A DNA stretch of 64,000 nt from Dehalococcoidia bacterium (GTDB lineage Bacteria > Chloroflexota > Dehalococcoidia > UBA2979). The position numbers and the translations under genes are program-made. The notes below the pieces were generated by a model that was not told where the DNA came from, searched no databases, and saw nothing but the letters and a program-made list of their open reading frames with translations. The DNA lies in assembly GCA_965261685.1 (NCBI GenBank), contig CBDHDI010000026.1:423777-487776 (forward strand). The letters run 5' to 3'. Within the stretch, counting starts at the first letter, position 1. Every line of letters starts with the position of its first letter. Of this stretch, positions 23,092 to 63,993 are shown in pieces.

Positions 23092-24681
<1,590 letters not shown>

Positions 24682-33702: not shown

Positions 33703-33903
33703 CTTATCAGCTGTACTGACCACAGAGCCCCGCCCTTCGCACGGCCCCACTGCTGCCCAGGCTCTTTCGCACCGGTCCACGAACATGGGTATGACGACCC
33801 GCTCGGGCGAAGAGGGATGCGCTAGGCTCTACGTGGCGCTCGCGTTCTGAGCAGGCGAACTGGGCCTGCCTAGCCACGCTAGGTCAATCCCGGGCCTCAC
33901 TCC

Positions 33904-40400: not shown

Positions 40401-43400
40401 GACGACGACGACGAGACCGTGACGATCGCGGCGTCGACGATGTCGGCCCTGACGCTGTCGACGTCGTCGCTGACCGTCACGATCGCCGACGACGACGAAC
40501 CGAATACCGCGCCCGTCTTCCAGCCTCCGTCCCCGACGCGCAGCGTGGACGAGAACAGCGCAGCAGGCGTCGCCGTGGGCGCGCCGGTGACCGCGATCGA
40601 CGCCGACAACGACCGGCTGAGCTACTCGCTGGGCGGCGCCGGCGCGACCGCGTTCCGGATCGATGAGGCCAGCGGACAGCTGCGCACGGTCTCGGGGGTT
40701 GACTACGACCATGAGGCGGCCGACCGCTACGCCGTGACGGTCACCGCCGACGACCTGCGCGGGGGCGTCGGCAGGGCGTCGGTGACGATTCACGTCAGCG
40801 ACCTGGACGAGCCGCCGCCCGCCCCCGCCGAGCCAACCGTGACGCCCACGGTCGGCGAAACGGACGGCCTGGAGGTGTTCTGGATTGCCCCCAGCGCGAG
40901 CGGCCGCCCCACGCTGAGCGGCTACGAGCTGCGCTATCGAGCGGGCGGCGGCTCGTGGGTCGGCTGGAACCACGCGGGCACGGGCATCGTCGCCACGCTC
41001 GACGGGCTCAAGGCTGGTACCCGTTACGAAGTCCAGGTGCGCGCCGGCAACCATGAGGGCTGGAGCAGCTGGTCGCAATTGGGCGCGGGCTCGACCAACA
41101 CTGCGGACGACATCTGTTCGGCTGACGGCCCGACCCCGACCAGGATCACGGTCAGTTCGGTGCCGATTGTGATCGCCTCGACGACGGACGACTACTTCGT
41201 CCTCTACGTCACCCACGAGTTGGACGGCGCCGAAATCTGGACGCCGGTCTCGGTCACCCGGGGCAACGCCGGCAGCACCACGCTCGCCGAGCAGGTCAGC
41301 CCGCTGCCCGCCTCGCGCTACCGGGTCGAGCGCTACTCCGTCTCCGACCCGGCCGACATCGACGGCGACTGTATCGACGACCTCGCCGAACTCGACGCCC
41401 TGGGCCGCTTGAACCCGCTCAACCCCGCACCCCAGATCGCGATCACGGACGGCGCGACGGCGATCCCCGACCGCTCGACCTTTGAGACGCTCGCCTTCTC
41501 CGAGCAGACCGCCGGGCATGAGTATGTCAAGTTCGCGCTGCTCGACATGGACACCGACGAGCCGCTGCTCTACTGGATCAACTCCAAGACCCACCGGCGC
41601 CACCCGATCGCCTTCTTCCTCGAGACGATCGGCCACGCGGGGCCGCACCTGCCTTGGTCGATCCCCGGCGAGGTCGTCTACAACCCCAACCTAACGGCGA
41701 CCGACGGCACGCGCGGCGTCTACTACTTCTGGCTGCTGCACTACGACGCCCGCTTCACGCCCGCCTTCCTGGAGCGCGTCTACGCGCTGCTCAGCTCGGC
41801 CATGCCGCTGCTCGACGACGACCTGCCGATGTACATCCCCAACCAGCGGCTCGGCAGCTATCGGGCCGATCTGGATACGCTCAGGGACTCGCGGATCCCA
41901 CTGCTCTTCAACGAGGACGTCTTCGGCAACGCCGACTTCCTCGCCCTCAACCACGGCGTCGGCTACGGCCGCCTGCGGGTGATGGCGCCGGGCGAGCGTC
42001 CCAACCCGCGCAACGTCGTGATCTACGAGACGCTGCCCAACGAGTTGCCGCGCGTCGCCGGGATCATCACCGGCGTGCCCCAGACTCCGCTCTCGCACGT
42101 CAATCTGCGCGCCGTCCAGGACGGCGTCCCCAACGCCTACATCAAGGAGCCGCTGGAGGACGACGAGATCGACGACCTGGTTGATCGCTTCGTCCGCTAC
42201 GAGGTGACAGCCGAGGGCTACGAACTGCGCGCCGCCGCCAAGGCCGAGGTCGACGCTCACTTCGCCCGCTCCCGACCCGCCCATGTGCAGACCCCGGAAC
42301 GCGACCTCACGGTCACGGCGATCAGCGCGCTCAGCGAGATCGGCTTCGACGACTGGCGCGCGCTCGGGGTCAAGGCCGCCAACGTCGCCGAACTGGGCAA
42401 GCTCGGCTTCCCCGAGGGCGCCGTGCCCGACGGCTTCGCCATCCCTTTCTACTTCTACGACGAGTTCATGCAGCACACCGCCCTGGGCGAGGAGACCGTC
42501 TTCGGCAAGGGCAAGGGCGCCGACGAGGACAAATTCACGCTGCCGGCCGAGACCAAGCTGATCGATGCCGTCCAGGCGATACTGGCCCACCCCAAGTTCC
42601 AGACGGACTTCGAGATCCAGGACGAGATGCTGGATGACCTCCGCGACGCGATCGAGGACGCCCAGAGCCCGCAGTGGATCATCGACGCCCTGACCGCCAT
42701 GCACGCGACGTATCCGCAGGGGCAATCGCTGCGCTACCGGTCGAGCACGAACAACGAGGATCTGCCGGGCTTCAGCGGCGCCGGGCTGTACGACTCCAAC
42801 ACCCAGAAGCCCGACGAGACCGTCGAGGACGGGATCGACAAGTCGCTCAAGCAGGTCTTCGCCAGCCTGTGGAACTTCCGGGCGTTCACCGAGCGGGAGT
42901 TCCATCGCATCGACCACCTGGCCACCGCGATGGGCATCCTCGTCCATCCCAACTACTCCGACGAGCGGGCCAACGGCGTGGCCGTGAGCTTCGACCCGAT
43001 TCGCGGCTACAGCAACTACTACTACCTCAACACCCAGCTCGGCGAGGACCTGGTCACCAACCCCGAGGCCGACTCCGAACCAGAGGAAATCCTGCTGCAC
43101 CGCAGCGGCGACTTCTACGAAGTCCTGGCGACCTCCAACCAGATCGAACCGGGCGCGCTGTTGATGACCGACCTGCAGATGAAGCAGCTGGCCGAGCACC
43201 TGACCGTGATCCACGACCACTTCGCCCGGCTCTATCCGGCCCGACCCTACGCAATCGAGATCGAGTTCAAGATCACCGAGGCAGACATCCTCGCGATCAA
43301 GCAGGCCCGGCCCTGGGTCTACGGCGCTGCGACCTCCTCCTCGCCGCTCACTGGCCCTGCGACCGTCGGCTACGAGGAGAATCGGGCCTCCCGTGTGGCC

Positions 43401-46265: not shown

Positions 46266-47923
46266 CTCGAATCCACCGATCGAAGCTTGAAGGGGCGGGC
46301 TGCCGGGCTGCCGGAGCGTTCGGCGGGCGTGCCGGCGTTCGCCGGGCGGTGCCGGAGCGAGGAGCCGTCGCTCAGCGTCGCTCAGCGCGGCTCGGGGGCG
46401 CTGAGGGCGCCGGCGCGAGGGTGCGCGAGGCGTGCGCGGGCATGCTGGCGCGAGCCTCGGACCCGTGTTGGCGCTGTGAGCGAGCGTCAGGCCGGGAGCG
46501 GTAACGCCCGTAACCGCGCCAGGGCGGCTGCCCACTGGCCAGCCCAGGGCCAGCGCTTCGCGAGGTGCAGGGTCCAGCGCCGTGCAGAATGGGTGAGCCG
46601 TCCGGCGAGAGCGAAGTAGCGCCGCCTGAGCGTCCTGGTCGTCACGATCCCCTCGCCGAGCCCGAGCCGCGCCGTCCAGCGGGCGAGGTTGTGCGCGATC
46701 ACCTGCACCGCGAGCCACGCCCCGTTCGCGCCGAAGCGGCCCGAGGGGAGATGGTTCAGCCCGACGCCGTACTTGAGGTCACGGATCGTGTTCTCGATCT
46801 CGGCGTGACGGCGATGGTCGGCCTCCAGCTCCAGCAGCTCCCCGGCGCGATCGGTGATGAAGGCGTGGTAACTATAGTTCGCAAAGAGCGCGAGCTGTGA
46901 GCCGGGCGTCGGCTTGACGCGCCGCACGATGAGCCGCACCGCGGTGGCATCCTCCTTGTGCTGGAACGGCGTGTAGGTCGTCTCGGCGACATCCGCGCCG
47001 CCCGGCAGCCAGTACGGGATCGGCGTCCAGTCCTCTTCCGGGATCGCCTCGATCAGCGTGCGTACGTTCGGCTGCTGGCGAATGGTGATGGAGAAGCGGA
47101 CATCCTGCTTGCGGCAGACGGCGACGACGGCGTGGTTGTAGAAGCCGCTGTCGGCGCGCACCGTGAGCTGCCCGCTCGCCCCGGCGTCGCGCACCCGCGC
47201 CACCGTCTCACGCAGGAAGTGGGCGGCGCCGCGGGCGGTGTTGGCGCGGCCCTCGCGCAGCCGCGCCATCAGCACGTCACCCGTCCCGGCCGCAACGGCG
47301 AGCAGCGGGTGATAGCCGCGCACGCCCGTGTAGCCGTGGTGCCGGGCGCCCTCCTTCGCCAGGCCGTAGGTCTCGCAGATCGTCGAATCGAGGTCGATCG
47401 TGAACGGCGCCGCGCCCGGGCCCGCTCCGGCCGCCCAGCTGCGGGCGAGCAACTCGCGGCTGAGGCGGTCGAGCTGGCGGACGTGGCCCCAGCTGAAGCT
47501 GCGCAGGAAGACACCGAGCGTGGACGGCGCCTTGACGGTGCAACCGAGCACGCTCGCCGTCCCGCCGGCGCGCAACGCAGCGGCGTCGTCGATGCACTCG
47601 CCGCCCGCGAGCGCCGAGGCGACCAGGGTCAGCAGCTTGTCGCCGGCGTTCGCCCGGCCCGGCGCGTCACCGAGGTCGAGGTAGCTGTCGGCGAGCTCTT
47701 GCAAACCGAGATGCTGGGCGAGCGTGGCCGGGAGGAGCAGCCCCGCATCGGCCACCAGGCGGTCGTCGTCGAAGGCGATGTCTATCCGGTCGGGGTCGCT
47801 CGTTGGTAGCATCGAATGGGTGCTCCCTGTGGCTGTGACGTGATTCGGTCAAAAACCATTGTCCCAGCTACAGCGGAGCACCCAACCGCAACCGCTCATG
47901 CGCTCTTCTTCGGTGGATCCCGG
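46266..47923 (-). mobile_element. IS1380-family IS, copy 4 (1658 bp), TSD CTTAT, inserted in giant gene
   Basis: gccccTTAT|ctcgaatcc ... ggatcccgg|CTTATgcg. Transposase 46487..47812 (-). Confidence 0.85.
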
Positions 47924-47928
47924 CTTAT

Positions 47929-50900
47929 GCGCTCACCCTGCCCGCGGGCTCCAGCTCGGTGGCGGCCACGATCAGCATCGTTGACGACGCCGAGGAAGAA
48001 GGCAACGAGACCATCGTGGTCAGGGCCCGGCATGGAGCCGATGCCGTTGGTGACCTCCAGGTCATCAAGATCCTGGCCAACGACGAACCCATCATCGGCA
48101 ACACCCTGCCAGTGTTCAGGGATGGTCAGTTTGCGGCACGATCCATTGCCGAGAACACCGGGCCGAACATGGACATCGGCACCCGGCTCGAGGCAAGGGA
48201 TGTCGATCCGGGGGACACGCTGACGTACTCGCTGGGCGGCACGGACGGTGGCTTCTTCACCGTCGTCCGGACCAGCGGTCAACTCCAGACCCGGTCCGGC
48301 ATCACCTACGACCACGAGGCGCGGTCGAGCTACCGCGTGACCGTGAGCGTCTCGGACGGCGCGGCCACTGCATCGATCGACGTGACGATCGCGGTGACCG
48401 ATGTGGACGAACCGCCCGATGCGCCTGTCGTGCGGGTGGGCAGCGCGTCGCCCGTCAGCCTCAATGTGATGTGGCTGGCGCCCGCCACCCCCGACCGCCC
48501 CGCAGTCAGCAACTACGACGTGCGCTACAAGCTGGACAGCGAAACGACGTTCATCGACGGCCCTCAGGATGTGAGCGGGACGAGCACGACGATTGCTGGT
48601 CTGCTACCAGCCTCCAGCTACGACGTGCAGGTGCGAGCGACGAACGCTGAGGGCGACGGAGCCTGGTCGGCGTCGCAACCGGGCGAGACGGCCGTGCTGC
48701 CGGCGGTCACGCTGATCCTGAGTGCATCTTCGATACCCGAGGACCGCGGGATGAGCACGGTGACCGCGACCGTGTCACCGGCCTCGCCTGCACCCTTCTC
48801 CGTGGAGATCTGGGCAGCGGCCGTCCCGCCGATCCCGGGCCAATTCGAGACCAGCCTGAATAACATCCTCAGCTTCGCGGCGAACGCGACGCAGAGCACC
48901 GGCCAAGTGGTGATCACGGGCCTCGTCGCGACGGTGGTGAACGTAACCGGCACCGTGTCGCCGGCCGGCGTCCTGGTGAAACCGCCGGCCCGCGTCCAGC
49001 TGCGAATCACAGATGTGGACCCCGCAGTGACAGTGCGCTTCGGGAGTGCCACCTACAACGTGCCCGAGGGGGGCATCCGACGCATCAGCGTGCTCCTGGA
49101 CGAGGACCCGGAGCGCACAGTGGTCATCCCCATCACGAAGACCAACCAGGGCGGAGCGCGCAGCGGCGACTACTCCGTCGACCCTGACCCTACCAACGTG
49201 ACGTTCAACGCCGGCGGAGACCTGACGCAGACCTTCACCTTCACCGCCACCGCTGACACGGACGACGACGATGGCGAGAGCGTGTTGCTGAGCTTCGGCA
49301 CTCCCTTGCCCACGCGTGTGTCCACCCTCGCGCCCATCCAGAGCACGGTCAGCATCATCGACGACGACGATCCGGAGGTAACCGTTAAGTTCGGCGCATC
49401 CTCGATCAACGTGGGTGAGGGCGACAGCGCCACCATCACCGTGACCATCAGCGCCGACCCGGAGCGCACCGTGGTCATCCCGATCACGAAGACCGGGGAG
49501 CACGGCGCCACCGCGCAAGGCGAAACGGGCGCCGACTACTCGGGCGTCCCGAACAGCGTGATCTTCACCGCCAGCGGGTCGCAGACCTTCACCCTCACGG
49601 CGACGCAGGACCGCATTGACGACGACAACGAGGTGGTCAAGCTGGGCTTTGACACCGACAAGCTGCCGCCGGGCGTTACTGCCGAGAGTCCCACCACGCA
49701 GACGATCAACATCGGCGACGACGACAAGCGCGGCGTGACGGTCACGCCGGACGAGCTGGGCGTCAACGAGGACATGTCAGGCACCTACACGGTGGTGCTG
49801 GACACGCAGCCCACGGCGAACGTGACGGTGACGCCCAGGACGACGAGCAGCGAAGTGACGCTCTCCGGCGACCTCATGTTCACGCCGACCGACTGGGACA
49901 CTGCCCAGATGGTCACCGTCACGGCGGGGAACGACGCCGACACGGTGGCTGAGACGCTGACTGTCACGCACACGACGCGCGGCGGCGACTACGACATGCT
50001 GGCGACCGCCAGTGTCGCGGTGACGTTGGTGGACGACGACATTGCCGGCGTCGCGATCAACCCTTCGAATCTGGAGATTGACGAGGGATCGGAAAAAACG
50101 TTCACCGTCAAGCTGATCACCGAGCCCGGTAACGTCGTGACTGTCACGATGAGCTCCCGCGACGCGGCCGTGGCGACCGTCAGCGACGACTCGCTGACCT
50201 TCACGACCGGCGACTGGAGCACGGAGCAGGAGGTGACCGTCGCGGCTGCGCAGGACGACGGCGCGGCGAACAACGACACGATGATCACCTTTGGCGTGAG
50301 CGGCTACGGAAGCGTTACGGAGGCTGCACCCGTCACGGTCACCGTGGAGGACGACGACGAGCGCGCCGTGACGATCAGCGTGAGCGCGCTCACGGTGGAG
50401 GAGGAAGCGGCCACCGCCGACCCGCCGACCAACACCTACACGGTGGTGCTGGACACGCAGCCGGAGCAAGGGGAAGGCAACGTGACCGTCGCCATCACCT
50501 CCGACAACGACGACATCAGGACTAACGGCGGCAGCGCCACGTCGGCGAGCCCGTACAACCTGACCTTCACGTCCACCAACTGGGACCAACCGCAGACGGT
50601 GGCGGTCACGGCGATCAACGACCTCGACGGCTGGAACGAGGAAGCGACGCTCACCCACGCCGTGAGCGGCGCGGACTACGGCGCCGTGAACGCCGGTGCC
50701 GTCGGTGTCACGGTGACGGACAACGACCTGCTCGGCCTGCGCGTCAGCCCCGCCGAGTACACCACCGAACGCGTGGACGTGACTGAGGGCACGACGTATA
50801 GCTACACGTTGGCGCTCCTGACGGTCCCGCTGGGCGACGTCACCGTCGACATCACCTCCAACAACCCGGACGTGACCGTGGACCCGACGAAGTTGACGAT

Positions 50901-51645
50901 CCTCGCCGCCCAGTGGAACGCCCCGCACACGGTCAAGATCACCGTGGCGGCCGACGCCGACGGTGAGGACGAGCCGGCGACGCTGTCGCACACCCTGAGC
51001 GGCTACGGAACGTACACCACCGGCCCCGATTTCCTGGTGCAAGTGCTGGACCGGAACGAGCCCGGCGTGTTCATCGAGCCGACGACGCTGGCGATCACCG
51101 ACGGCTTTACCGACGCGTACTCAGTCTGGCTGCGCACGGAGCCCAGCGGCACCGCAACGGTTCGGGTAGCGGGCCACGCGGGCACGGATGTGACGGTGAT
51201 GCCGGAGAGCCTCACCTTCAGTTCCTCGGACTGGAACGTGCCGCAGGCCGTCACGGTCACGGCTGCGGAGGATGAGGACGCGGACAACGACACGGTGACG
51301 CTGACGCACACCGTGAGCGGCTACGGCACGGTCACCACCACCGATGCTGTCACGGTGACCATCGTGGACCGCGACGAAGAGGGAATCACGGTCACGGACG
51401 TGACGCCCCCGCTGGAGGACCCCAACGAGGGCGATACCCCAGCCACGGGCACGTACACGATCGTGCTGGACACGCAGCCCAGCGGCGAGGTGATGGTCGC
51501 CATCACCTCCAACAACCCGGACGTGACGGTGATGCCGGAGAGCTCCATCTTCACGACCTCGGACTGGAACCAGTCCCAGACGGTCACCGTCACGGCCGCG
51601 GGTGACGCGGACGCAACGGACGACACGGCGACCCTGACCCATAAG
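47929..51645 (+). CDS. Giant surface protein, segment B (1,239 codons): Calx-beta continuation, cadherin, FN3, Calx-beta x3, six ~105-aa tandem repeats; interrupted by IS1380 copy 5
   Basis: Frame-compatible with segment A once the 1658-bp IS plus 5-bp TSD are removed; the join reads ...TLTAPY|ALTLPAGSSSVAATISIVDDAEEEGNETIVV (Calx-beta-like). Confidence 0.8.
49727..51640 (+). repeat. Six tandem ~105-110-aa coding repeats (GVTVTPxxLxVxEGxSxTYTVVLDTQPxxxVTVxxxS...DTxTLTHTVSG...VTVTxDDD)
   Basis: Periodicity visible in the translated sequence; repeats start near 49741, 50050, 50370, 50735, 51066 and 51381. Confidence 0.6.
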
Positions 51646-53303
51646 CCGGGATCCACCGAAGAAGAGCGCATGAGCGGTTGCGGTTGGGTGCTCCGCTGTA
51701 GCTGGGACAATGGTTTTTGACCGAATCACGTCACAGCCACAGGGAGCACCCATTCGATGCTACCAACGAGCGACCCCGACCGGATAGACATCGCCTTCGA
51801 CGACGACCGCCTGGTGGCCGATGCGGGGCTGCTCCTCCCGGCCACGCTCGCCCAGCATCTCGGTTTGCAAGAGCTCGCCGACAGCTACCTCGACCTCGGT
51901 GACGCGCCGGGCCGGGCGAACGCCGGCGACAAGCTGCTGACCCTGGTCGCCTCGGCGCTCGCGGGCGGCGAGTGCATCGACGACGCCGCTGCGTTGCGCG
52001 CCGGCGGGACGGCGAGCGTGCTCGGTTGCACCGTCAAGGCGCCGTCCACGCTCGGTGTCTTCCTGCGCAGCTTCAGCTGGGGCCACGTCCGCCAGCTCGA
52101 CCGCCTCAGCCGCGAGTTGCTCGCCCGCAGCTGGGCGGCCGGAGCGGGCCCGGGCGCGGCGCCGTTCACGATCGACCTCGATTCGACGATCTGCGAGACC
52201 TACGGCCTGGCGAAGGAGGGCGCCCGGCACCACGGCTACACGGGCGTGCGCGGCTATCACCCGCTGCTCGCCGTTGCGGCCGGGACGGGTGACGTGCTGA
52301 TGGCGCGGCTGCGCGAGGGCCGCGCCAACACCGCCCGCGGCGCCGCCCACTTCCTGCGTGAGACGGTGGCGCGGGTGCGCGACGCCGGGGCGAGCGGGCA
52401 GCTCACGGTGCGCGCCGACAGCGGCTTCTACAACCACGCCGTCGTCGCCGTCTGCCGCAAGCAGGATGTCCGCTTCTCCATCACCATTCGCCAGCAGCCG
52501 AACGTACGCACGCTGATCGAGGCGATCCCGGAAGAGGACTGGACGCCGATCCCGTACTGGCTGCCGGGCGGCGCGGATGTCGCCGAGACGACCTACACGC
52601 CGTTCCAGCACAAGGAGGATGCCACCGCGGTGCGGCTCATCGTGCGGCGCGTCAAGCCGACGCCCGGCTCACAGCTCGCGCTCTTTGCGAACTATAGTTA
52701 CCACGCCTTCATCACCGATCGCGCCGGGGAGCTGCTGGAGCTGGAGGCCGACCATCGCCGTCACGCCGAGATCGAGAACACGATCCGTGACCTCAAGTAC
52801 GGCGTCGGGCTGAACCATCTCCCCTCGGGCCGCTTCGGCGCGAACGGGGCGTGGCTCGCGGTGCAGGTGATCGCGCACAACCTCGCCCGCTGGACGGCGC
52901 GGCTCGGGCTCGGCGAGGGGATCGTGACGACCAGGACGCTCAGGCGGCGCTACTTCGCTCTCGCCGGACGGCTCACCCATTCTGCACGGCGCTGGACCCT
53001 GCACCTCGCGAAGCGCTGGCCCTGGGCTGGCCAGTGGGCAGCCGCCCTGGCGCGGTTACGGGCGTTACCGCTCCCGGCCTGACGCTCGCTCACAGCGCCA
53101 ACACGGGTCCGAGGCTCGCGCCAGCATGCCCGCGCACGCCTCGCGCACCCTCGCGCCGGCGCCCTCAGCGCCCCCGAGCCGCGCTGAGCGACGCTGAGCG
53201 ACGGCTCCTCGCTCCGGCACCGCCCGGCGAACGCCGGCACGCCCGCCGAACGCTCCGGCAGCCCGGCAGCCCGCCCCTTCAAGCTTCGATCGGTGGATTC
53301 GAG
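51646..53303 (+). mobile_element. IS1380-family IS, copy 5 (1658 bp), TSD ATAAG, inserted in giant gene
   Basis: ccATAAG|ccgggatccacc ... gattcgag|ATAAGgcc. Transposase 51757..53082 (+). Confidence 0.85.
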
Positions 53304-53308
53304 ATAAG

Positions 53309-55027
53309 GCCAGCGGCAGCGATTACAGCGCCACCGCCGCCCTCATGGTCACCGTCACCGACCTGGACGACCCGCCGACCACCAGCACTAGCACCGGCGG
53401 CGGTGGCGGTGGTCCCTCCGGCCCCGCGCCGAGCAAGGTCGAGTTCGAGTGGAACGTGACCCGCGACATCGAGCAGCTCGACAGCGGCCACGACTCCCCA
53501 ACGGGCGCCTGGTCGGACGGCACGCTGCTCTGGATCGCCGAGAACGGCGACGGGGCTGACGACGCCGTCTACGCCTACGACCTCGCCACGGGCGAGCGCC
53601 TCGAGGAGCGTGAGTTCGAACTCCACGAAACCAACCGCGCGCCGCGCGGCCTGTGGTCCAACGGCAAGACCGCCTGGGTCGCCGATAGCGGCCAGAACCG
53701 CCTCTTCGCCTACGACCTCGAGAGCGGCGAACGCGACGAAGAGCGCGAGGTCGAGCTCGACACGCGCAACCGCGACCCGCGCGGCATCTGGTCCGACAAG
53801 GAGACGATGTGGGTGCTCGACGGCGGCAAGAACGCGCTCTTCGCCTACGACCTCGCCACCGGCGAGCTGCTGGTCGAGTACACCCTGCACTCCACCAACG
53901 ACGACCCGCGGGGTCTCTGGTCCGACGGCGTCACCATCTGGGTCTCCGACCACGGCGCCAAGCGCATCTTCGCCTACCGGGTCGTGGCGCAGGACGCCGA
54001 GACCGCGACCGAGGACGAAGACGACGCGGCCGAGGAAGAGGCGCTCCTGCTCGATCGTGCCCGCGACGAGGAGTTCACCGAACTGAGCCGGGCCAGCAAC
54101 AACAGCCCGCGCGGCATCTGGTCCGACGGCGAGGTGATGTACGTCGCCGACGAGAGCGACGGCAGGGTCTACAGCTACAACCTGCCTGACGCCATCGACG
54201 CACGCCTCGCCTCGCTCACCCTCAGCGGCGTCGACATCGGGGAGTTCGATCCTGGCGCCATCGACTACCAGGGCGTCATCGCCGAGGGCGTGACCGAGAC
54301 GACGGTCGAGGCCGCAGCGATGCAGCGCCGCACGAACGTCGAGATCCACCCGCTCGACGCCAACGAGGCTGCCGACGGCCACCAGGTGGCGCTGGAAGGC
54401 CTGGACGCGATCACCGTCACCGTCACCTCGGCCGACGGCAGCCGCACCCGCGTCTACCGCGTTCGCCTCGGCGAGGAGGCGGCGAGCTGCCTGCGCGGCG
54501 ACATCGCCGAAGGCTTCAGCTTTGTGGTCCATGAGGGCGGCCCGGTCGAGGAACTGGTGGCCTGCGCGGAGAGCCGGGATGTGGTCGCGCTCTACGCGCT
54601 GCACGAGGGCGTCTACATCCCGTACATCCTTGGTGCGCCGGACTTCGTCAATGCGCGGTTCACGGAGCTGTACGCCGACGGCGTGCCCGCTCTCACACTG
54701 CTGATCGCCGGGAGCAACGGGCCTCCCAGTGAGGATCCGCTGGGCGATACCGGCATGCCACAGCCCTGGCCCGAGTGTCTGCGGGGTGAGATCGCGGAGG
54801 GGTTCAGCCCGGTGCTCTACGAGGGCGGCAGCGTCGACGACCTGGCGGCGTGCGCGCAGGGCCGAGGAGTCACAGCCGTGTATACCCTCGCGAGCGGGGA
54901 GTGGATCTCGTACATCCTCGGCGCACCTGAGTTCGCGAACCAGGCCTTCCGGGAATTGTTCGCCGAGGGGCTGGCCGCCGTCACGCCGCTGGTCGTCAGG
55001 AGCGAGGGACCTGCCGCAGGTAACTGA
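53309..55027 (+). CDS. Giant surface protein, segment C (572 codons): linker, second propeller-repeat array, cadherin-like beta-sandwich, 2.5 copies of novel Cys-containing C-terminal module
   Basis: The join reads ...ATLTHK|ASGSDYSATAALMVTVTDLDDPP. The C-terminal modules are CLRGDIAEGFSFVVHEGGPVEELVACAESRDVVALYALHEGVYIPYILGAPDFVNARFTELYADGVPALTLL, repeated. Confidence 0.8.
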   Translation, partial: ASGSDYSATAALMVTVTDLDDPPTTSTSTGGGGGGPSGPAPSKVEFEWNVTRDIEQLDSGHDSPTGAWSDGTLLWIAENGDGADDAVYAYDLATGERLEEREFELHETNRAPRGLWSNGKTAWVADSGQNRLFAYDLESGERDEEREVELDTRNRDPRGIWSDKETMWVLDGGKNALFAYDLATGELLVEYTLHSTNDDPRGLWSDGVTIWVSDHGAKRIFAYRVVAQDAETATEDEDDAAEEEALLLDRARDEEFTELSRASNNSPRGIWSDGEVMYVADESDGRVYSYNLPDAIDARLASLTLSGVDIGEFDPGAIDYQGVIAEGVTETTVEAAAMQRRTNVEIHPLDANEAADGHQVALEGLDAITVTVTSADGSRTRVYRVRLGEEAASCLRGDIAEGFSFVVHEGGPVEELVACAESRDVVALYALHEGVYIPYILGAPDFVNARFTELYADGVPALTLLIAGSNGPPSEDPLGDTGMPQPWPECLRGEIAEGFSPVLYEGGSVDDLAACAQGRGVTAVYTLASGEWISYILGAPEFANQAFRELFAEGLAAVTPLVVRSEGPAAGN

Positions 55028-55434
55028 TCTCCCTGTGCGCAACCTGCGTCTGCTGAACGAGACGGGCTACGGCGCCTGGACAGCCGCGCAAGCGGCGGCA
55101 AGTCGCGGCCACACGGGAAGAGGCCGGGCTGGAATGACGGGAATCGCCTATCGGCTCAGGGCGAGCAGGCTCACGGTCCACGAATAGCGCAGCTTTTCGT
55201 GTGGATTGGAAAACCGAGAACTCCGTCTCGAACCAGACGATCGTCGGTATGAAGCTGCGGTCGTGCCAAAAGGGTGCGCCAGGTTGTATCTGGCGCTCTT
55301 GTTCTGAGCGCAGCGGCAGCCTCGCTCCCGCGGTGCCGGGCCACGACTCGGGAGCCCAGCCGGCGCCGCATCCACGGCATGGGCACATGCTCGCAGAACC
55401 GATTCGGCTAGCAAAGCAGGTCGGCCGTCAATCG

Positions 55435-56779
55435 CTAGTCGATGAAGTCGAGTCTCCCTGACCGCGCTGAGCAGTCCCAGGTACCGCTAGGGTCCTTGTG
55501 ACGCCGTAGTTGCGTCCCTGGTCTCTTACGCCGGAAGCGCCTGCCACACATCGGGCAGACCACGACGTACCGAGCTTCACTTGAGCTTGTGCGACTTCGC
55601 CGGGGAGACCTCGACCGCCCGGTGCTGCGGCGAGCCGACGGGAGTGCTGGGATCGCTCCCGCCTCTGGGAATTCGATAGCGTAGCTCGGAGTGAACGGCT
55701 GGGTTGTGACCCGGGCCGACTCGATGCGGTCAAGCCTGTACGCTCGGTGCTCACGGCTCTCCGCCCGAAGGGCGTGGAGAAGGACGTTCCCTGCCCGTGA
55801 CTGCCTCAGGGAGTACGGCTCAATCAGCCGATTCCCACCCTGGTACCCAAGATCAACGAGCAAGCGGTTCACAGCCGCAAACCGGACGGGTTCGATGCGG
55901 TTCCCCAACCCCGTCGTCCAGAAGGTCGGTGGCGGTGTCCAGAGATCGTCCTCCGCCGCCAGCGGTACGGGCTCAGGGGACTCTTCACCGTTGAGCCAGG
56001 CGAAGAGCCGCGGCAACTCGGACCAGAAGTGGTCGAAGTCCGGGAGGGCTCTCAACTGGTGGTCGAGCATATTCGCCCACTCGGTTTCGAGTTCGTCGAA
56101 CATCGGGGAGGTCCGGATGCTCTCGACTGAAGGGATGGCGATCCCTTTCGACGAGCACTTCTCGGCCAGGATCTCGCGGACGAGTGCGGCGTAGGGCAAG
56201 AAGTCCGGCCGACGGAAGAGGTTGACGATGTCGTAGAGGTCCCGAGGTCTCGACCGCTCGCCCATCGCGCGCAGCTTCTCGGCGAAGACCTCTTCGAAGC
56301 CGTAGCAGCGAACTTGCACCGGCTCGGGTAGTGCATCGGGATAGTCGTGGCTGATCGACCTCAGGACCGACGGCCGCACCACGACTTCGTCTGTGGTCAG
56401 GTCGAGCTTGATGCTCGCGGGACCGGGCGCGTTGCGCGGCCCGCGATAGTAGAGTCGCCCTTCTGCCGATGCTCCGGACGGACGGCTCCTGCAGATGGGT
56501 GGTCGCACCGCGAAGTCGATGCCGGACTCCTGACTGACACGGTCGAGTACACGCTCGACCGCCGCGAGCACCTCTTCCGGCTCGATCGGCCCGTCTTCAA
56601 GAACCGTGAAGTCGAGGTCCTCGGAGAACCGGTACGTCTCGATGTAGCACTTCTTCAGGCACGTGCCGCTTGAAAACCCACGTCCGGCCGAGCAATGAGT
56701 CGGCCCCAATACCCCAGAGCACCCACCCGAGCACGTAGTCCTTCTCGACTACGTCCTCGCGGAGACCCCACGTGCGCAC
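55435..56779 (-). pseudogene. abiEii: AbiEii/AbiGii-family nucleotidyltransferase toxin with -1 frameshift (~56620-56630) and C-terminal WYL-like domain + zinc-ribbon extension
   Basis: Frame A gives VEKDYVLGWVLWGIGADSLLGRTWVFK. Frame B then gives GTCLKKCYIETYRFSEDLDFT, the canonical NTase motif. A one-base loss in a G run accounts for the shift (gtt ttc aag [g]gc ggc acg...). C-terminus: NVLLHALRAESREHRAYRLDRIESARVTTQPF (WYL-like) and VVVCPMCGRRF...C. Confidence 0.65.
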
Positions 56780-56805
56780 CCGGTCGTAGATATCGGCTCG
56801 CCCGA

Positions 56806-57345
56806 TTACAAGTGAGCCTCGTTAGCGGGAGCAAGCCGTGCGCTGTTCACCCGGAGATTCCAACGCGAGACGATCCGGCCTTCCCTCGGGCCAGCAGGAT
56901 CGAGCCAGCTCAGCCCGCGAGTGATCCGGCTGCGACATGCGCCGATAAAGCTGGCGTCCGCAAGCTGCTGTCGCTCCGCCAGGTACCCGAGGCGCTTGAA
57001 TACGGTCCCGCGGCCCAGGCGGTCGCCGTACTGCAGGAGACGCGCTGGATCGGCATCGGCACTCTCGAAGTATGTACCGAGGACTTCGGATGCATGCAGC
57101 GCACCTCCCGCCGCGCCCGGCACGTCGAGAACATCGATGACGGTGCGGTGCGGGTCGGACACATCGACCGGCACCTGTCGGCGCCAGACACGCCGCGTGC
57201 CGAACAGTGCCTCCATGGGCACGCTCCGGATGGTGAAGTCTGTACCCTGAACCGACTGTCGGCTCGGCGTGACCTTCTTACCGGAGACGACGTAGATGAC
57301 ACTGAAGATCTGGTCGGTCAGTCCCCAGTGCTCTGCGGCGCTCCA
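56806..57345 (-). pseudogene. abiEi: abiEi antitoxin, C-terminal part (gene split by IS256 copy 2)
   Basis: ...AEHWGLTDQIFSVIYVVSGKKVTPSRQSVQGTDFTIRSVPMEALFGTRRVWRRQVPVDVSDPHRTVIDVLD. Confidence 0.65.
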
Positions 57346-58710
57346 AGTAGCGTCCCAGCAAGTGGTGTCACAGAGGTGGACGTAGGAGACCACCGCGCCA
57401 TCCTTCACACAGGAGTTAGTCACGTGAAGGAGGACTACGGTGGTCAGGGAGAGCGTGAACTTGTTGGAGTTGCTCCGCAAGCAGGCGGCCGGGGGTGACC
57501 TCGACTTCTTGCGTGAGGCGGTCGCGGTGCTCGCCGAGGCGGTGATGGAGGCCGAGGTCGCAGAGCAGGCCGGCGCCGCCTACGGCGAGCGCAGCCCCGA
57601 GCGCATCACCCGGCGCAACGGCTACCGGCCGAGGCGCTGGGACACGCGCGCCGGCAGCATCGAGCTGCAGATCCCGAAGCTGCGCCAGGGCAGCTACTTC
57701 CCCGCCCTGCTCGAGCCCAGGCGCCGTGCTGAGCGCGCGCTGCTGTCGGTTGTGCAGCAGGCCTACGTCGAGGGCGTCTCGACCCGCCGCGTCGACGACC
57801 TCGTGCGTTCGCTCGGCTGCGAGGGCATCTCCAAGAGCCAGGTCTCGCGCATCTGCGCCGAGCTCGACAGCGTCGTCACGAGCTTCCTCGAGCGGCCGCT
57901 CGACGGCGGTCCGTACCGCTACCTCTGGCTCGACGCGCTCACCCAGCGCGTGCGCGAGGAGGGCCGTATCGCCCAGGTCAGCGTCGTCGTCGCCACGGCC
58001 GTCAACGCCGACGGCAAGCGTGAGGTGCTGGGCATTGACGTCGGCACGAGCGAGGACGGGGCGTCTTGGCTCTCATTTCTCCGCGGGCTGGTGGCGCGCG
58101 GGCTCTCCGGCGTGGAGCTCGTGACCTCCGACGCCCACCAGGGCCTCAGGGCGGCGATCGCGACCGTCTTCGGCGGCGCCTCGTGGCAGCGCTGCCGCAC
58201 GCACTTCATGAGGAACGTGCTGACGCGGGTACCGAAGAGCGCCGAGGGGCTAGTGGCGACGACGGTGCGCACGATCTTCCAACAGCCGTCGGCGGAGGCG
58301 GTGCACGCCCAGCACGCCCGCGTCGTGGAGCAACTGGAGGCGCGCTTCCCCGCGGCCGCGGCGATGCTCGCCGAGGCGGCGCCGGATGTCCTGGCGTTCA
58401 CGGCCTGCCCGGTCGCGCACTGGAAGCAGGTCTGGTCGAACAACCCGCAGGAGCGCCTCAACCGCGAGATCCGCAGGCGCACCGACGTGGTCGGCATCTT
58501 CCCCAACCGCGCCGCGGTCGTGCGGCTGGTCGGCGCGCTGCTGGCCGAGCAGCACGACGAGTGGGCCGTGGCGAGGCGCTACATGACGATGGTGACGCTG
58601 CTGCACCCGCCCGGGCGCGAGGTCACTTCAGGCGAGGAGGTGCTGCTGCAAGCTGCCAGCTAGCAATTGATAAGGATGGTGCACTGTGACACCAACTTGC
58701 GGGACGTGAC
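57346..58710 (+). mobile_element. IS256-family IS, copy 2 (1365 bp) with perfect 8-bp TSD GCGCTCCA, inserted in abiEi
   Basis: gcgctcca|AGTAGCGTCCCAGCAAGTGGTGTCACAG ... CTGTGACACCAACTTGCGGGACGTGACC|gcgctcca. Transposase 57440..58663 (+). Confidence 0.85.
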
Positions 58711-59049
58711 CGCGCTCCACCCTCCGATGTAGCCTGGAGTGAACAGGGTTGCGGCCACGATCCATGGATCTTCTCGCCACTCGCTCGGCTCGGAGGCCTC
58801 AAGCGGGACTGCGATGTACCAGCCTGGGCGCACACGCGAGAGCCACCCGCCAGCAGCGAGCGCTGCAAGGAGACGGCGCGTCGGTGCGATCTCCGTACCG
58901 AGCGCCGACGCTGCCTGGGTGGCATTGAACGGACCAGGGAATCTCCGATGAAGCACGGCCAGGTGCGCTCGCCGCCGACGCCCGAGGCCGGCCGCCAGGG
59001 TGCCCTCGCGATACATCAGAACTGGATTGTCTTCTGTGAGACTGGACAC
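58711..59049 (-). pseudogene. abiEi: abiEi antitoxin, N-terminal wHTH part
   Basis: LHRRFPGPFNATQAASALGTEIAPTRRLLAALAAGGWLSRVRPGWYIAVPLEA...EDPWIVAATLFTPGYIGGWSA. It joins the C-terminal part in frame across the TSD (GGWSAAEHW). Confidence 0.65.
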
Positions 59050-59318
59050 TTTGCCCTCGCAATGTAGGTCAGTACATCAGAGGACGTGACTTTTCTTCCG
59101 TAGAGTGAACTGTGGACTCTCAGTATACCGAGGCACTCCTCCAGAACAACGACCCGAGGTCCCGACGCTCACCGCGAACGAGCTCGAATCCGGTAAGGAT
59201 GCCGCCCACGGCGCTCTTCCGGCTCACCCCAGGAACTCCGGGCCAAGACATCGGCGAGGCGGTGCTGGAATGTCGGTATTTATTGACATCATCCGACGTA
59301 TCAAAGCACTATCGGGCC

Positions 59319-59623
59319 ATGAGCAAAGCGGGCACGGAAGAGATCCTCGACCTCGTGCGAGAGGCCGGGCTGGTACGTCCGCGCGACCTCGAGTCGGCCG
59401 GCGTTCCGGGAGGCTCCCTCGCGCAACTGGCGCAGAGAGGTCTGCTGGAGAGGCTCGGCCGTGGCCTGTATGCGGCGCCCGGTGCCGCACCAAGTGAGCA
59501 CCGCTCGCTCGCGGAAGTCTCGAAGCGGACGCCACGAGGGGTAGTTTGCCTGCTCTCGGCACTGCGGTTCCATGGACTCACTACCCAGGCGCCACCCGAG
59601 GTCTGGCTGGCGATCGGCCCTAA
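59319..59623 (+). pseudogene. Second abiEi-like antitoxin N-terminal domain gene, 3' end disrupted by IS5 insertion
   Basis: MSKAGTEEILDLVREAGLVRPRDLESAGVPGGSLAQLAQRGLLERLGRGLYAAPGA...VVCLLSALRFHGLTTQAPPEVWLAIGPK. No cognate abiEii lies downstream. Confidence 0.55.
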
Positions 59624-60799
59624 GGATGGTCTGAACAACTCGCCTGAGCGCGTGAGCGGATGCGATCATGGGCGGACCCGGAGAGGGGCGCCCCATGCAG
59701 CAGCGTTCGTTCGGCAGCGTCGAGTACGAGCACAAGAAGGTCAAGACGAGGCGGCAGACGTTCCTCGAGCGCATGGACAGGCTCGTCCCCTGGGCTGAGC
59801 TGGAGCAGCGCATCACGCCCGTCTACCCGAAGCCGGGCCGCGGACGCCGCCCCTACCCGCTGCGCGTGATGCTGCGCATCCACTGCCTGCAGCTCTGGTT
59901 CAACCTCAGCGACCCCGGCATGGAGCAGGAACTCTACGACTCCCGCTCGATGCTCGAGTTCGCCGGTCTCAGCCTCTCCGAGCCGATTCCCGATGAGACG
60001 ACGGTCCTCCATTTCCGCCATCTGCTGGAGCGTCATCAGCTGGGAACGGCGCTGTTCGCGACCATCAACGCGCATCTCGCAGCGCGCGGTCTGCAGGTGC
60101 GCGAGGGCACGATCGTGGACTCCACGATCATCAGCGCGCCGTCATCGACGAAGAACCGGGAGCGTGCGCGCGACCCCGAGATGCACCAGACCAGAAAGGG
60201 CCGGCAGTGGTACTTCGGGATGAAGCTGCACAGCGGCACGGATGCGCGGACGGGGCTGGTCCACAGCGTGCACACGACGGCGGCGAACATCGCCGACGTG
60301 ACCGAGGTGCACCGCCTGTTGCACGGCGCTGAGAGCGCGGTGTGGGGTGATGCCGGCTACCAGGGAGTGGAGAAGCGCCCGGAGCACGCGGGTTCGGAGG
60401 TGAGCTGGCAGGTGGCGATGCGCCCGGGTCTCAGGCGGCTGCTGCCGCCGGGCGGCGCTGAGGCACAGGCGGAGCGGCGCAAGGCCTCAGTGCGAGCGAA
60501 GGCGGAGCATCCGTTTCTCTACGTGAAGCGGCACTTCGGGTACGCGCAGGTCCGCTACCGGGGTCTTGAGAAGAACCGCCAGCGGCTCGCGCTGCTGCTC
60601 GGTTTCGCGAACCTGTTGCGAGCCGAGCCTCAGCTCGCCTGATCGCGGGAGCGCTGCGTCCGGAATCGCCCGCCGAAGCGCTTCCGGAGCGACATGGAGG
60701 CGAGACCACCCCCTGAACCGCGGTATCGGCCCCCACAGCGCGGCGCGGTACGCCGATCGACCCGCACCGCGCCCGATACGCCACCTGTTCAGACCATCC
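59624..60799 (+). mobile_element. IS5-family IS (1176 bp) with perfect 14-bp terminal IRs GGATGGTCTGAACA and 4-bp TSD CTAA
   Basis: ggccCTAA|GGATGGTCTGAACAactcg ... ctgTTCAGACCATCC|CTAAggaac. The transposase is 59695..60642 (+), about 316 aa, DDE IS5-type. Confidence 0.8.
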
Positions 60800-61197
60800 C
60801 TAAGGAACTCTGCACCGTACTGAGCGATGAGCTCCTCGGTGGTTCGGGGGCCTCGTTCGCCTGATCCGTGCCCCCCGGCCTCGTTGGTCAAGTCGGGGTA
60901 CACGTCGATGACGGCGGCTTCGACCTCGAACGCGACGCTAGGATCCTGGATTCCATGCCGGTGGACTACATGCTGCACCTCGAGGCCCTCGACTTGGATC
61001 TCCTCGATGCGCTGCTCCTTCAGACTGCGAGAGTCTTCATCCTGTATTTCGGAGTAGTCGCCCCGCGCATGTTGGAAGATGCGATCGCCTGTCCCCTTGC
61101 CCACGTAGAAGGTTTCGCCATCCCGGGGATCGATTAGGCGATACACATAGTGGGCCAATTGCTCAGCCACTCCTGGCGGAAAGCTGTCTATCGGCAT
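60800..61197 (-). CDS. GIY-YIG nuclease-domain protein; 3' end abuts/enters the IS5 right end, so true C-terminus uncertain
   Basis: MPIDSFPPGVAEQLAHYVYRLIDPRDGETFYVGKGTGDRIFQHARGD (GIY/YVY...YVGKG motif). Confidence 0.5.
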
Positions 61198-61345
61198 TCG
61201 CTCGCTCCTACCCGTCGCTGGACGGCGTCTCCGCTGCGGAGTGAATGGGCCGAACGGATCATAGTCGAGCGGGGCGCCGAGAGGCGGGGAGACCGTGGCA
61301 GCGGAGCGGCTTGGCAAGGTTTGGCAAGCAGGCTAGCCTTGCAGC

Positions 61346-61585
61346 ATGAGCACGATGAACATCTCGCTGCCCGAAGGCCTCAAGGGCTTTGTGGACCAAC
61401 AGGTCAGATCCCGCGGCTACAGCTCGTCGAGCGAGTACCTCCGCGAACTGATCCGCAAGGATCAGGATCGGCAAGCCCTGCGCGGGCTGCTCCTCGAGGG
61501 CGCGGCGTCGCCACCCGCGGTCACTGCCGATGCGGAGTACTTCGACCAGTTGCGCGACCGGGTTCGCGAAGCCCGCCAGGGGTGA
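61346..61585 (+). CDS. parD: ParD/CopG-family RHH antitoxin
   Basis: MSTMNISLPEGLKGFVDQQVRSRGYSSSSEYLRELIRKDQDRQAL. Confidence 0.75.
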   Translation: MSTMNISLPEGLKGFVDQQVRSRGYSSSSEYLRELIRKDQDRQALRGLLLEGAASPPAVTADAEYFDQLRDRVREARQG

Positions 61586-61911
61586 TCGGCAAACCTGTCG
61601 TACTTCGGCGGCGGGCGCAGCGCGATGTCGACGAGGCCGTCGAGCACTATATTGCGGAGGCGTCGACGGCAGTCGCGTCGGCCTTCATCGACGCGCTGGA
61701 GGACGCCTTCCGGCGCGTCGGTGAGCACCCTGCAAGCGGCTCGCCGCGCTACGCCTCCGAACTGAATCTTCCCGGCCTCCGCTCGTGGATCGTGACGGGG
61801 TTTCCGCACCTGATCTTCTACGTCGAACGGGAAGCGGACATCGACGTGTGGAGGGTTCTGCACGGGGCGCGAGACGTTCCCGCGTGGCTGCGGGAGCCGC
61901 CCGGAGACTGA
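61582..61911 (+). CDS. parE: ParE/RelE-family toxin (GTG start overlapping parD stop)
   Basis: ...AEASTAVASAFIDALEDAFRRVGEHPASGSPRYASELNLPGLRSWIVTGFPHLIFYVEREADIDVWRVLHGARD. Confidence 0.7.
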   Translation: MIGKPVVLRRRAQRDVDEAVEHYIAEASTAVASAFIDALEDAFRRVGEHPASGSPRYASELNLPGLRSWIVTGFPHLIFYVEREADIDVWRVLHGARDVPAWLREPPGD

Positions 61912-62313: not shown

Positions 62314-63993
62314 CTAGCCGGCGGTGAGACCGCGCACGACACCGCGCACGATCTCCTCGGGCACGTCGCCGCGCACGACCGGGCGGCCGATCTCCTCGAG
62401 CAGCACGAAGCGCAGCCGTCCGGCCTCGACCTTCTTGTCGAGGAGCATCGTCTCCATCACGGCCTGCGTGTCGACGCCCGGCGCGGCCAGCGGCAGGCCG
62501 AGCGTGCGCAGCACGTCCGCCTGGCGGGCGACGACCTCGTTGTCGAGGATGCCCATCTGCTCGGCGATGCGCGCCGCGCCCATCATGCCGACGGAGACCG
62601 CCTCGCCGTGGAGGTAGTCCTCGTAGCCGGTCACCGCCTCGATCGCGTGGCCGATGGTGTGGCCGTAGTTGAGGATCGCGCGCAGCCCGCGCTCCTTCGG
62701 ATCGGCGGAGACGATCAGCGCCTTCAGCCGAGAGGATCGCGCGATCACGTTCGTCAGCAGCTCGCGGTTCGGCTGCGCATTACCGAGGTCACCGGCGTGC
62801 CGCTCGATCTCGCCGAGCAGCAACGGGTCGAGGATCAGCGCGTGCTTGACCACCTCGGCCAGTCCCTCGGTGAAGGCGCGGCGCGGCAACGTGCGCAGCA
62901 GGTCGATGTCGGAGAGGACGGCGCGCGGCTGGTGGAACGCGCCGACGAGGTTCTTGCCGCCGGGCAGGTCGACCGCGACCTTGCCGCCGATCGCCGCGTC
63001 GTTCATCGCCAGCACGGAGGTCGGCACCTGCACGAACGGCATCCCGCGCAGGTACGTCGCGGCGACATACCCCGCGAGGTCGCCGACCACGCCGCCGCCG
63101 AACGCGATCACCACGTCGCGCCGCTCGGCGCGGGACTGCGCAAGCCAGCCGTAGATCTCCTCGGCGGCGCGCAGGCTCTTCGAGGTCTCGCCCGGCGGGA
63201 CCACGTACGAGGCGCCGCGGTAGCCGCCCGTGTCGAGCGCCTCGACCAGCTGCTGCCCGTGCGCCTCCATCACCGCCTCGTCGGCGACGACGTAGACGGA
63301 GCCCTCGAGGCCCAACAGGCGCAGCCGCTCCGGCAGCCGCATCAGCTCGCCCGCGCCGACCCAGATCGGGTAGCGCTCTGTGCCCGTATCGACGATCGCG
63401 GCCGGGCCGGCAATGGGCTGGGCGCTGCCCAGCCGCTCGAGGCGGCGCGCGCCGCCGGCGTGCACGTTCGGGCCGCCGGACCAGGCCTGCAGGATGCGGT
63501 CCGCCACCGCGTCGGGCGTGAGGCCCTGCGCGGGCGTCCAGAGATCGGCCTGGCTGTAGTGGATGCGCCGCTCGTCGCTCAGCTCCTGCAGCCGGCCCTC
63601 GAGGTCCTCGCCCAGCAGCGGGCGCTCCGTCGAGTCCGGCTCCTCGCGCAGGCGGCGCGCGATCTCGGCGGGCGCGGCGTCCAGCCAGCAGATCATTCCG
63701 TGCTCACCGAGGGCGCGACGCGAGCGGGCGCTGAGGAAGGCCCCGCCGCCGAGCGAGATCACGGCCGGCGTGCGCCGGGCGGCCTCGGCCACCACGCGCT
63801 CCTCGATCCTGCGGAAGGCGAACTCGCCGCGAGAGGTGATCAGCTCCGCCGGCGTCTTGCCCTCGAGCTCGGTCACGAGGTCATCGGTGTCGATCAGCGG
63901 CCAGCCGAGGCGGGCGGCGAGGATCGCGCCGACCGAGGACTTGCCGACGCCGCTGATGCCGACCAGCACGATCTGCCGCATCGGCGCGTCCAC
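62314..63993 (-). CDS. aroKB: Bifunctional shikimate kinase / 3-dehydroquinate synthase (AroK-AroB fusion)
   Basis: N-terminal LVGISGVGKSSVG P-loop (shikimate kinase). The C-terminal DHQ synthase motifs GGGVVGDLAGYVAATYLRGMPFVQVPTS...NYGHTIGHAIE. Confidence 0.85.
   Translation of the reverse strand: MDAPMRQIVLVGISGVGKSSVGAILAARLGWPLIDTDDLVTELEGKTPAELITSRGEFAFRRIEERVVAEAARRTPAVISLGGGAFLSARSRRALGEHGMICWLDAAPAEIARRLREEPDSTERPLLGEDLEGRLQELSDERRIHYSQADLWTPAQGLTPDAVADRILQAWSGGPNVHAGGARRLERLGSAQPIAGPAAIVDTGTERYPIWVGAGELMRLPERLRLLGLEGSVYVVADEAVMEAHGQQLVEALDTGGYRGASYVVPPGETSKSLRAAEEIYGWLAQSRAERRDVVIAFGGGVVGDLAGYVAATYLRGMPFVQVPTSVLAMNDAAIGGKVAVDLPGGKNLVGAFHQPRAVLSDIDLLRTLPRRAFTEGLAEVVKHALILDPLLLGEIERHAGDLGNAQPNRELLTNVIARSSRLKALIVSADPKERGLRAILNYGHTIGHAIEAVTGYEDYLHGEAVSVGMMGAARIAEQMGILDNEVVARQADVLRTLGLPLAAPGVDTQAVMETMLLDKKVEAGRLRFVLLEEIGRPVVRGDVPEEIVRGVVRGLTAG

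Follow-up and report, generated by a model that had tools for sequence, protein, structure and literature searches.

A decayed long-form abiE operon in an insertion-sequence-rich region of a Dehalococcoidia genome

The abiE operon described here lies on the reverse strand (59016 to 55435) of a 64,000-nucleotide stretch of the genome of a Dehalococcoidia bacterium (NCBI GenBank assembly GCA_965261685.1, contig CBDHDI010000026.1, positions 423,777 to 487,776 of the forward strand), which we refer to as the window and in which position 1 is the first letter. Judged from its sequence, it is a broken copy of the canonical two-gene operon, abiEi followed by abiEii; in an intact module the first gene would supply an antitoxin that doubles as repressor and the second a nucleotidyltransferase (NTase) toxin. 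We are confident in reading it as a recently decayed, long-form abiE operon with three lesions, lodged in a mobile island that has undergone a burst of insertion sequences (ISs) and belonging to a widespread subfamily. There is nothing out of the ordinary about this pseudogene copy, whose subfamily is known and very common, and, with both genes apparently dead in the window, the mechanism of the intact system is predicted not to operate here.

Lesions in abiEi and abiEii

Lesions were called by comparison with intact orthologous DNA on two metagenome contigs, L001 and L083. The first of these is 93.5% identical to the window over 2.6 kb and encodes P0001, a protein 96% identical to the repaired AbiEii. 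Feature coordinates are collected in Table 1.

The abiEi gene is broken after ...GYIGGWSA by a 1,366-bp IS256-family element, flanked by perfect 8-bp direct repeats (GCGCTCCA); neither L001 nor L083 carries an IS256 element at the orthologous site. In-silico removal of the element and one copy of the repeat yields ...GYIGGWSAAEHWGL... and an 837-nt abiEi encoding 278 amino acids (aa), equal in length to the intact L001 orthologue and 95% identical to it at the protein level, which bears out the clean, restorable split proposed in an earlier, sequence-only reading of this DNA. Restored AbiEi matches Pfam PF09407 (AbiEi_1) at 23.0 bits against a threshold of 22.2 and PADLOC AbiEi PDLC02271 at E 3.6e-77, while no NCBIfam model matches AbiEi, AbiEii or the AbiEii tail. 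Membership of the IS256 family is borne out by the Mutator-type DDE transposase (407 aa; PF00872, E 4e-131; 344 bits against a cut-off of 150 for the NCBIfam IS256 equivalog NF033543), the imperfect terminal inverted repeats (within about 57346-57373 and 58684-58711) and the 8-bp target duplication; at about 1.37 kb, the element shows no notable difference from its family. A 100% identical copy at 35184-36549 has its own 8-bp duplication, GATGCGAG.

The abiEii gene is split over two frames, with a 5′ piece ending in ...EKDYVLGWVLWGIGADSLLGRTWVFK and a 3′ piece, beginning GTCLKKCYIETYRFSEDLDF..., that runs to a stop codon at 55435. The break separates EKDYVL from YRFSEDLDF, as the sequence-only reading had it, but the lesion is not the single-base deletion at 56620-56630 that had been proposed: two bases are missing between window positions 56669 and 56670, where the window reads AAG-C-GGC-ACG and both L001 and L083 read AAG GGC GGG ACG (K-G-G-T). 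This deletion hits the Gly48 codon of catalytic motif I; in Streptococcus agalactiae AbiEii, mutating the motif I glycine abolishes toxicity (PMC3985639). Adding GG back gives a 1,377-nt abiEii open reading frame (ORF), the same length as the L001 orthologue.

Double inactivation had been claimed, and multiple lesions are indeed present, but the count was one short. The abiEii start codon, at which all homologues begin MIGRA..., has changed from GTG to GTA (56807-56809), so that the 4-nt overlap between the abiEi stop and the abiEii start, GTGA in L001, is GTAA in the window (56806-56809); the abiEi stop is kept and the abiEii start destroyed. Taken with the IS256 insertion and the 2-bp deletion, this lost start brings the lesions to three. 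Motif I is no longer in frame with motifs II-IV in the window, and all motif residues are still encoded; the window AbiEii is, on this comparison, a family member by descent but not functionally. A scan of 55200-59400 found no sigma-70 promoter, and upstream of abiEi there are only weak palindromes, from which no operator is definable.

It is unlikely, though not negligibly so, that the frameshift is a sequencing or assembly artefact and that abiEii is intact, with only abiEi disrupted. The deletion takes GG from a GGG run and could in principle be an assembly error, and the related contigs in public databases come from long reads assembled at low coverage (3-4x). On the other side, a 1-bp homopolymer error would be more usual than a 2-bp change, the start codon was lost independently, by substitution, and the window contains 9.2-kb and 3.8-kb ORFs of a giant surface-protein gene (see below) that run without a frameshift, as well as a 3.7-kb segment (47924-51645) that aligns to L001 with 0 gaps; the unbroken long ORFs and the gap-free segment suggest a low rate of consensus indel errors. 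A scan of JGI metagenome contigs for the site with or without the deletion gave 0 matches and was uninformative. Even with an artefactual frameshift, the IS and the lost start would still leave the operon disrupted.

Other close abiEii alleles from public metagenomes (P0003, P0121, P0126 and locus L083) are also truncated or frameshifted, at different positions: P0121 has a scrambled N-terminus and P0003 stops before the Cys2-His-Cys (C2HC) tail described below. These defects could be repeated decay within the lineage or errors of low-coverage long-read assembly.

The long form of AbiEii

The catalytic core is readily assigned. The window ORF matches PF08843 at 120.4 bits (threshold 22.5; E 1.5e-34) and P0001 matches PADLOC AbiEii PDLC02317 over residues 1-385 (E 8.5e-128). 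Motifs I-IV (G48 G49; R61, S63, D65, D67; K179, R186; D191/D194) are invariant in an alignment of 55 homologues; in AbiEii these motifs (hG[GS]; RxxxDhD; KLxAxxxR; RDxxD) are required for toxicity, as judged by mutagenesis (PMC3985639). The invariant residues include the candidate phospho-acceptor of motif II, S63 (R61-F-S63-E-D65-L-D67), whose position follows from aligning the motif to R63/T65/D67/D69 of S. agalactiae AbiEii; the known phospho-acceptors are T65 of AbiEii and S78 of MenT3. Fold was assessed on the intact homologue P0001 rather than on the broken window gene. In its AlphaFold2 model (predicted local distance difference test score, pLDDT, 81), the N-terminal 300 residues find their best structural matches in MenT4 (6y56) and MenT3/TglT, with a Foldseek probability of 1.00 (E 6e-7 to 1e-5; TM-score on target 0.57-0.60), and 6y56 is the sole PDB match at the sequence level.

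Like S. agalactiae AbiE (Dy et al. 2014, PMC3985639; Arrowsmith et al. 2026 preprint), the module consists of two genes in an operon, which overlap by 4 nt at stop and start in the window's intact relatives, and it encodes an AbiEi composed of a winged helix-turn-helix (wHTH) and a C-terminal domain, and a DUF1814 (COG2253) NTase with motifs I-IV. S. agalactiae AbiEii, however, has no WYL domain, basic linker or C2HC tail, and the window copy is predicted to be non-functional. Mycobacterium tuberculosis MenT4 (Rv2826c, PDB 6y56) and MenT3/TglT (Rv1045) are alike in N-terminal fold and are each paired with a COG5340-type antitoxin, but they share only 11-21% identity and have no C-terminal WYL or zinc module.

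Past the NTase core, the same ORF runs on for ~175 aa. Within this extension Pfam WYL (PF13280) scores 23.4 bits when the full ORF is searched and 25.4 bits with the tail alone, against a gathering score of 21.8; PADLOC WYL PDLC01652 matches at E 8.5e-6, and the region aligns to positions 310-391 of PDLC02317. Modelled with AlphaFold on intact relatives, the domain is a five-stranded barrel (pLDDT 91-97) that superposes on the WYL domains of DriD (7tzv/9cu3; 1.9 Å over 78 columns, 26% identity), BrxR (7qfz; 1.8 Å over 74 columns) and CapW (7tb5; 1.5 Å over 76), and the P0001 C-domain also matches the WYL domain of PafBC. Residues R310, N315, Y323, R328, E331, P332, Y333, R356 and Y358 of the WYL region are invariant. 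These profile matches and superpositions support the WYL motif seen in the sequence-only reading: AbiEii carries what sequence and model alike identify as a genuine C-terminal WYL domain. It shares the Sm/SH3-like beta-barrel of DriD, PafBC, CapW and BrxR (1.5-2.2 Å over 70-78 columns, 18-26% identity), but has L-L-H in place of the eponymous W-Y-L triplet and sits C-terminally on a toxin NTase rather than on a helix-turn-helix or a helicase. The WYL domain of the Thermotoga elfii PIF1 helicase, an accessory module that binds single-stranded DNA (ssDNA), is similarly borne on an enzyme.

Beyond the WYL domain and linker, the tail reads Y-V-V-V-C-P-M-C-G-R-R-F...L-R-R-H-K-D...C, with a Cys/His cluster, C-x2-C-x14-H-x8-C, at 55471-55557. 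The pattern C-x2-C-x10-16-H-x5-9-C is present in 82 of the 83 homologues of at least 440 aa, and also in distant phyla, so the cysteine cluster noted earlier stands; the zinc ribbon suggested for it is not supported. No zinc-ribbon or zinc-finger Pfam model scored above threshold (the best were zf-C2H2_4, 14.8 bits against 27, and Zn_ribbon_recom, 13.5 against 25.3), PDB profiles of C2H2 fingers matched the tail only at E ≥ 0.14, and Foldseek matched it to no PDB fold. The tail is modelled as all-beta, with no helix (pLDDT 91-96), a prediction that speaks against a classical C2H2 finger. The evidence takes the naming no further than a putative C2HC metal-binding knuckle.

In intact relatives the tail lies in the same ORF and is under purifying selection. 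Against L001, abiEi has a ratio of nonsynonymous to synonymous substitution rates (dN/dS) of 0.18 and abiEii one of 0.11, with 0.08 in the NTase part and 0.15 in the tail. Such low values indicate that the divergence mostly accrued under purifying selection, that the lesions are recent and that the tail was functional; they suggest recent decay.

The architecture had been called unusual, a view that database searches overturn. The best 120 homologues of the repaired AbiEii are all of the long form (386-478 aa, 58-96% identity), with a query coverage of 74-100%, nearly always at least 83%; many carry precomputed PF08843 and PF13280 matches, and their source name is 'nucleotidyl transferase AbiEii/AbiGii toxin family protein'. 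In an exhaustive search of representatives, the tail alone matched 666 clusters at 50% identity, and the matches listed were fragments or proteins of ~380-490 aa with the match at the C-terminal end. A word-index search with the C-terminal 172 aa returned only short proteins, which aligned as N-terminally truncated or frameshifted fragments of the family; no other architecture for the tail was seen among the matches inspected.

When one genome per species was scanned, the long form turned up in more than 10 phyla, its hosts including Chloroflexota, Actinomycetota, Planctomycetota, Verrucomicrobiota, Nitrospirota, Acidobacteriota, Ignavibacteriota and WOR-3, as well as alpha-, beta-, gamma- and deltaproteobacteria. 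The scanned loci fall into two groups of about equal size: in one the protein carries the C2HC tail (457-493 aa), and in the other it stops shortly past the WYL domain (about 390-417 aa). Plain AbiEii also occurs among the relatives found, at about 267-274 aa (about 267 aa in Bacteroidota). Among loci that include upstream sequence, nearly all have an abiEi homologue immediately before abiEii on the same strand, which implies that the long form has stayed within the standard two-gene system. By sequence, then, this is a subfamily with a C-terminal WYL domain and Arg-rich linker, to which about half to two-thirds of members add a C2HC tail.

The domain combination has been catalogued before. 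Makarova et al. 2014 (PMC4012209) listed WYL fused to an 'AbiGII-like nucleotidyltransferase (DUF1814)', and PADLOC PDLC02317 (396 positions) already covers NTase and WYL together; both share the domain combination with the window gene, but neither includes the C2HC tail, before which PDLC02317 ends, or any experiment. No published experimental work on the WYL domain or C2HC tail of AbiEii was found in the literature searched, and the fusion goes unmentioned in the experimental AbiE and MenT papers checked.

Insertion sequences and the mobile island

Positions 31967-59626 of the window are collinear with L001 (ENA ERZ25069191 ctg566873_4x_c, 34.4 kb) as a circular permutation, with 97-100% identity outside the abiE cassette; the suffix _c in the contig name may denote a circular molecule. 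The circle is opened at L001 7210-8553; the window lacks both the Fic gene and the 3′ end of the AbiEi_4 gene found there. At the left edge of the region stands a large serine recombinase (30361-32283), and there is a TrwB-like gene at 33904-34752. The region looks like an integrated or rearranged mobile element.

Within its ~28 kb there are five IS copies that are absent from the orthologous sites of L001: the two IS256 copies and three 100% identical, 1.67-kb IS1380-like (DDE_Tnp_1_4) elements at 32039-33708, 46260-47929 and 51640-53309. A sixth element, IS5-like and bordered by CTAA (59627-60799), interrupts the divergent AbiEi_4-type gene next to abiEi. IS DNA makes up about 19% of the window. 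Two of the IS1380-like insertions divide a giant surface-protein gene (37425-55027, +; about 4,750 aa, with Cadherin-like, fn3 and beta-propeller-type repeats) into three ORFs; its L001 orthologue overruns both ends of the locus and is possibly much longer. Older, partial IS copies of ~94% identity lie within 24680-29821.

The abiE cassette (55273-59640) is only 84-97% identical to L001, against 99.5-100% for the adjoining backbone (53304-55272). Together with the low dN/dS values, this divergence points to allelic replacement of a defence cassette on a near-identical backbone.

Whether the module was silenced because of its toxicity has to be judged against this background. The sequence-only reading raised the possibility that a rare or novel AbiEii-WYL-zinc-ribbon fusion had been silenced twice by selection against its toxicity, an account that we consider improbable. 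Its WYL match and Cys cluster are real, experimental work on the fused form was not found in the literature searched, and disruption of an antitoxin beside an active toxin would be harmful, which makes an ordering of the lesions, and selection, plausible; depending on the order of the lesions, selection against an antitoxin-less toxin may have acted. But the fusion is common and had been catalogued before, the island shows at least five other sites hit by IS256 or other IS families, two of them in the giant surface-protein gene, and the IS within abiEi also severs abiEii from the operon promoter. The insertion in abiEi can be taken as one event in a general IS burst that struck other genes too, and selection for toxin silencing is not needed.

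Two further explanations can be set aside with near certainty. Were the C-terminal extension a separate overlapping gene, as the sequence-only reading had allowed, or a fusion made by the frameshift, one would not expect NTase, WYL domain and tail to form a single ORF of 450-478 aa in intact homologues of many phyla, the frameshift to fall at codon 48, at the N-terminal end and far from the NTase-WYL junction, or PDLC02317 to cover both parts. Nor is the frame change credible as a programmed ribosomal frameshift in an expressed gene: at this site every other homologue, the two closest alleles included, is read in a single frame, the same change is seen in no independent lineage, the start codon is gone and an IS interrupts the operon.

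To the right of the operon, the AbiEi-type gene cut by the IS5-like element matches AbiEi_4 and AbiEi_3_N and has no toxin gene adjacent. Further on, at 61346-61911 (+) and 60800-61317 (-), are a ParD/ParE type II toxin-antitoxin pair and a LEM-3-like GIY-YIG nuclease ORF immediately adjoining the IS5-like element at its right end, followed at 62314-63993 by a chromosomal shikimate kinase/3-dehydroquinate synthase (AroK/AroB-type) fusion.

Table 1. Features of the abiE locus, in window coordinates.
Feature	Position	Strand	Remarks
abiEi 5′ fragment	58712-59016	-	ATG at 59016; wHTH part, residues 1-102; ends in right target-duplication copy
abiEi 3′ fragment	56806-57345	-	C-terminal domain; stop codon TAA at 56806-56808
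Left target-site duplication copy, GCGCTCCA, 8 bp	57338-57345		Right copy at 58712-58719
IS256-family element, copy 2	57346-58711	+	Transposase ORF 57440-58663; imperfect terminal inverted repeats
Lost abiEii start codon	56807-56809	-	GTA here, GTG in L001 and L083
abiEii 5′ segment, original frame	56670-56809	-	VIGRADIYDRVRTWGLREDVVEKDYVLGW...TWVFK
Frame-shifting 2-bp deletion site	56669-56670	-	GG of Gly48 codon, K-G-G-T of motif I
abiEii 3′ segment, shifted frame	55435-56669	-	Ends at TAG 55435-55437; carries NTase core
NTase core PF08843	about 56023-56667	-	E 1.5e-34
Motif II YRFSEDLDF	56608-56634	-	In abiEii 3′ segment
Motifs III/IV EKLRAMGERSRPRDLYD	56230-56280	-	In abiEii 3′ segment
WYL domain of AbiEii	55693-55890	-	PF13280 above gathering score; PADLOC models; structural superposition
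Arg/Ser-rich linker, predicted disordered	55570-55638	-	pLDDT below 50
C2HC putative metal-binding tail (YVVVCPMCGRRFRRKRPGTQLRRHKDPSGTWDC...)	55438-55569	-	Ligand cluster 55471-55557
Divergent AbiEi_4-type gene, cut by IS5-like element	59318-59626	+	PF13338, E 6e-12; intact 200-aa orthologue in L001

Possible working of intact long-form systems

By analogy with S. agalactiae AbiE and M. tuberculosis MenAT (PMC3985639; bioRxiv 10.64898/2026.01.19.700257), AbiEi of an intact long-form system would repress the operon and would neutralise AbiEii, probably by inducing autophosphorylation of Ser63 in motif II (R-F-S-E-D-L-D), while free AbiEii would add nucleotides to the 3′ ends of tRNAs and so stop translation. 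The WYL domains of DriD, PafBC and CapW bind ssDNA, WYL1 binds single-stranded RNA, and the PIF1 helicase carries its WYL domain as an accessory that binds ssDNA. Judged by these solved WYL proteins, the WYL domain of AbiEii, with its basic linker and zinc knuckle, may form a module that binds single-stranded nucleic acid, as the invariant basic and aromatic residues R328, Y333, R356 and Y358, the Arg-rich linker and the metal knuckle suggest. Such a module could either tether the RNA substrate or sense ssDNA or RNA derived from infection.

Several points weigh against this account. The role given to the WYL/C2HC tail is drawn by analogy only. At least one WYL protein binds cyclic di-GMP rather than nucleic acid (PMC11880434), so that a nucleotide ligand is possible for the AbiEii tail as well. 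MenT4, the closest solved structure, is reportedly not phosphorylated by its antitoxin (bioRxiv 10.64898/2026.01.19.700257), and the autophosphorylation step may accordingly not apply to long-form AbiEii.

We tentatively suggest, as a possibility less likely to be right than wrong, that WYL domain, linker and C2HC knuckle act as a sensor built into the toxin; on binding single-stranded nucleic acid derived from infection, or else a nucleotide signal, this sensor would turn the toxin on or free it from control by AbiEi. This suggestion concerns the family, as represented by intact homologues such as P0001, and not the dead copy in the window. If true, it would address how phage infection activates AbiE toxins, a step still called elusive in a 2026 AbiEii preprint (bioRxiv 10.64898/2026.01.19.700257).

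The window locus itself matters little, as a pseudogenised copy of a common defence or toxin-antitoxin module in an island fragmented by ISs. What it yields at the level of the family, as a by-product, is a very large, phylum-spanning long form of AbiEii with a conserved WYL domain under purifying selection and, in many members, a conserved C2HC tail; intact long-form members are reasonable candidates for a toxin-borne nucleic-acid-binding role in sensing or substrate choice.

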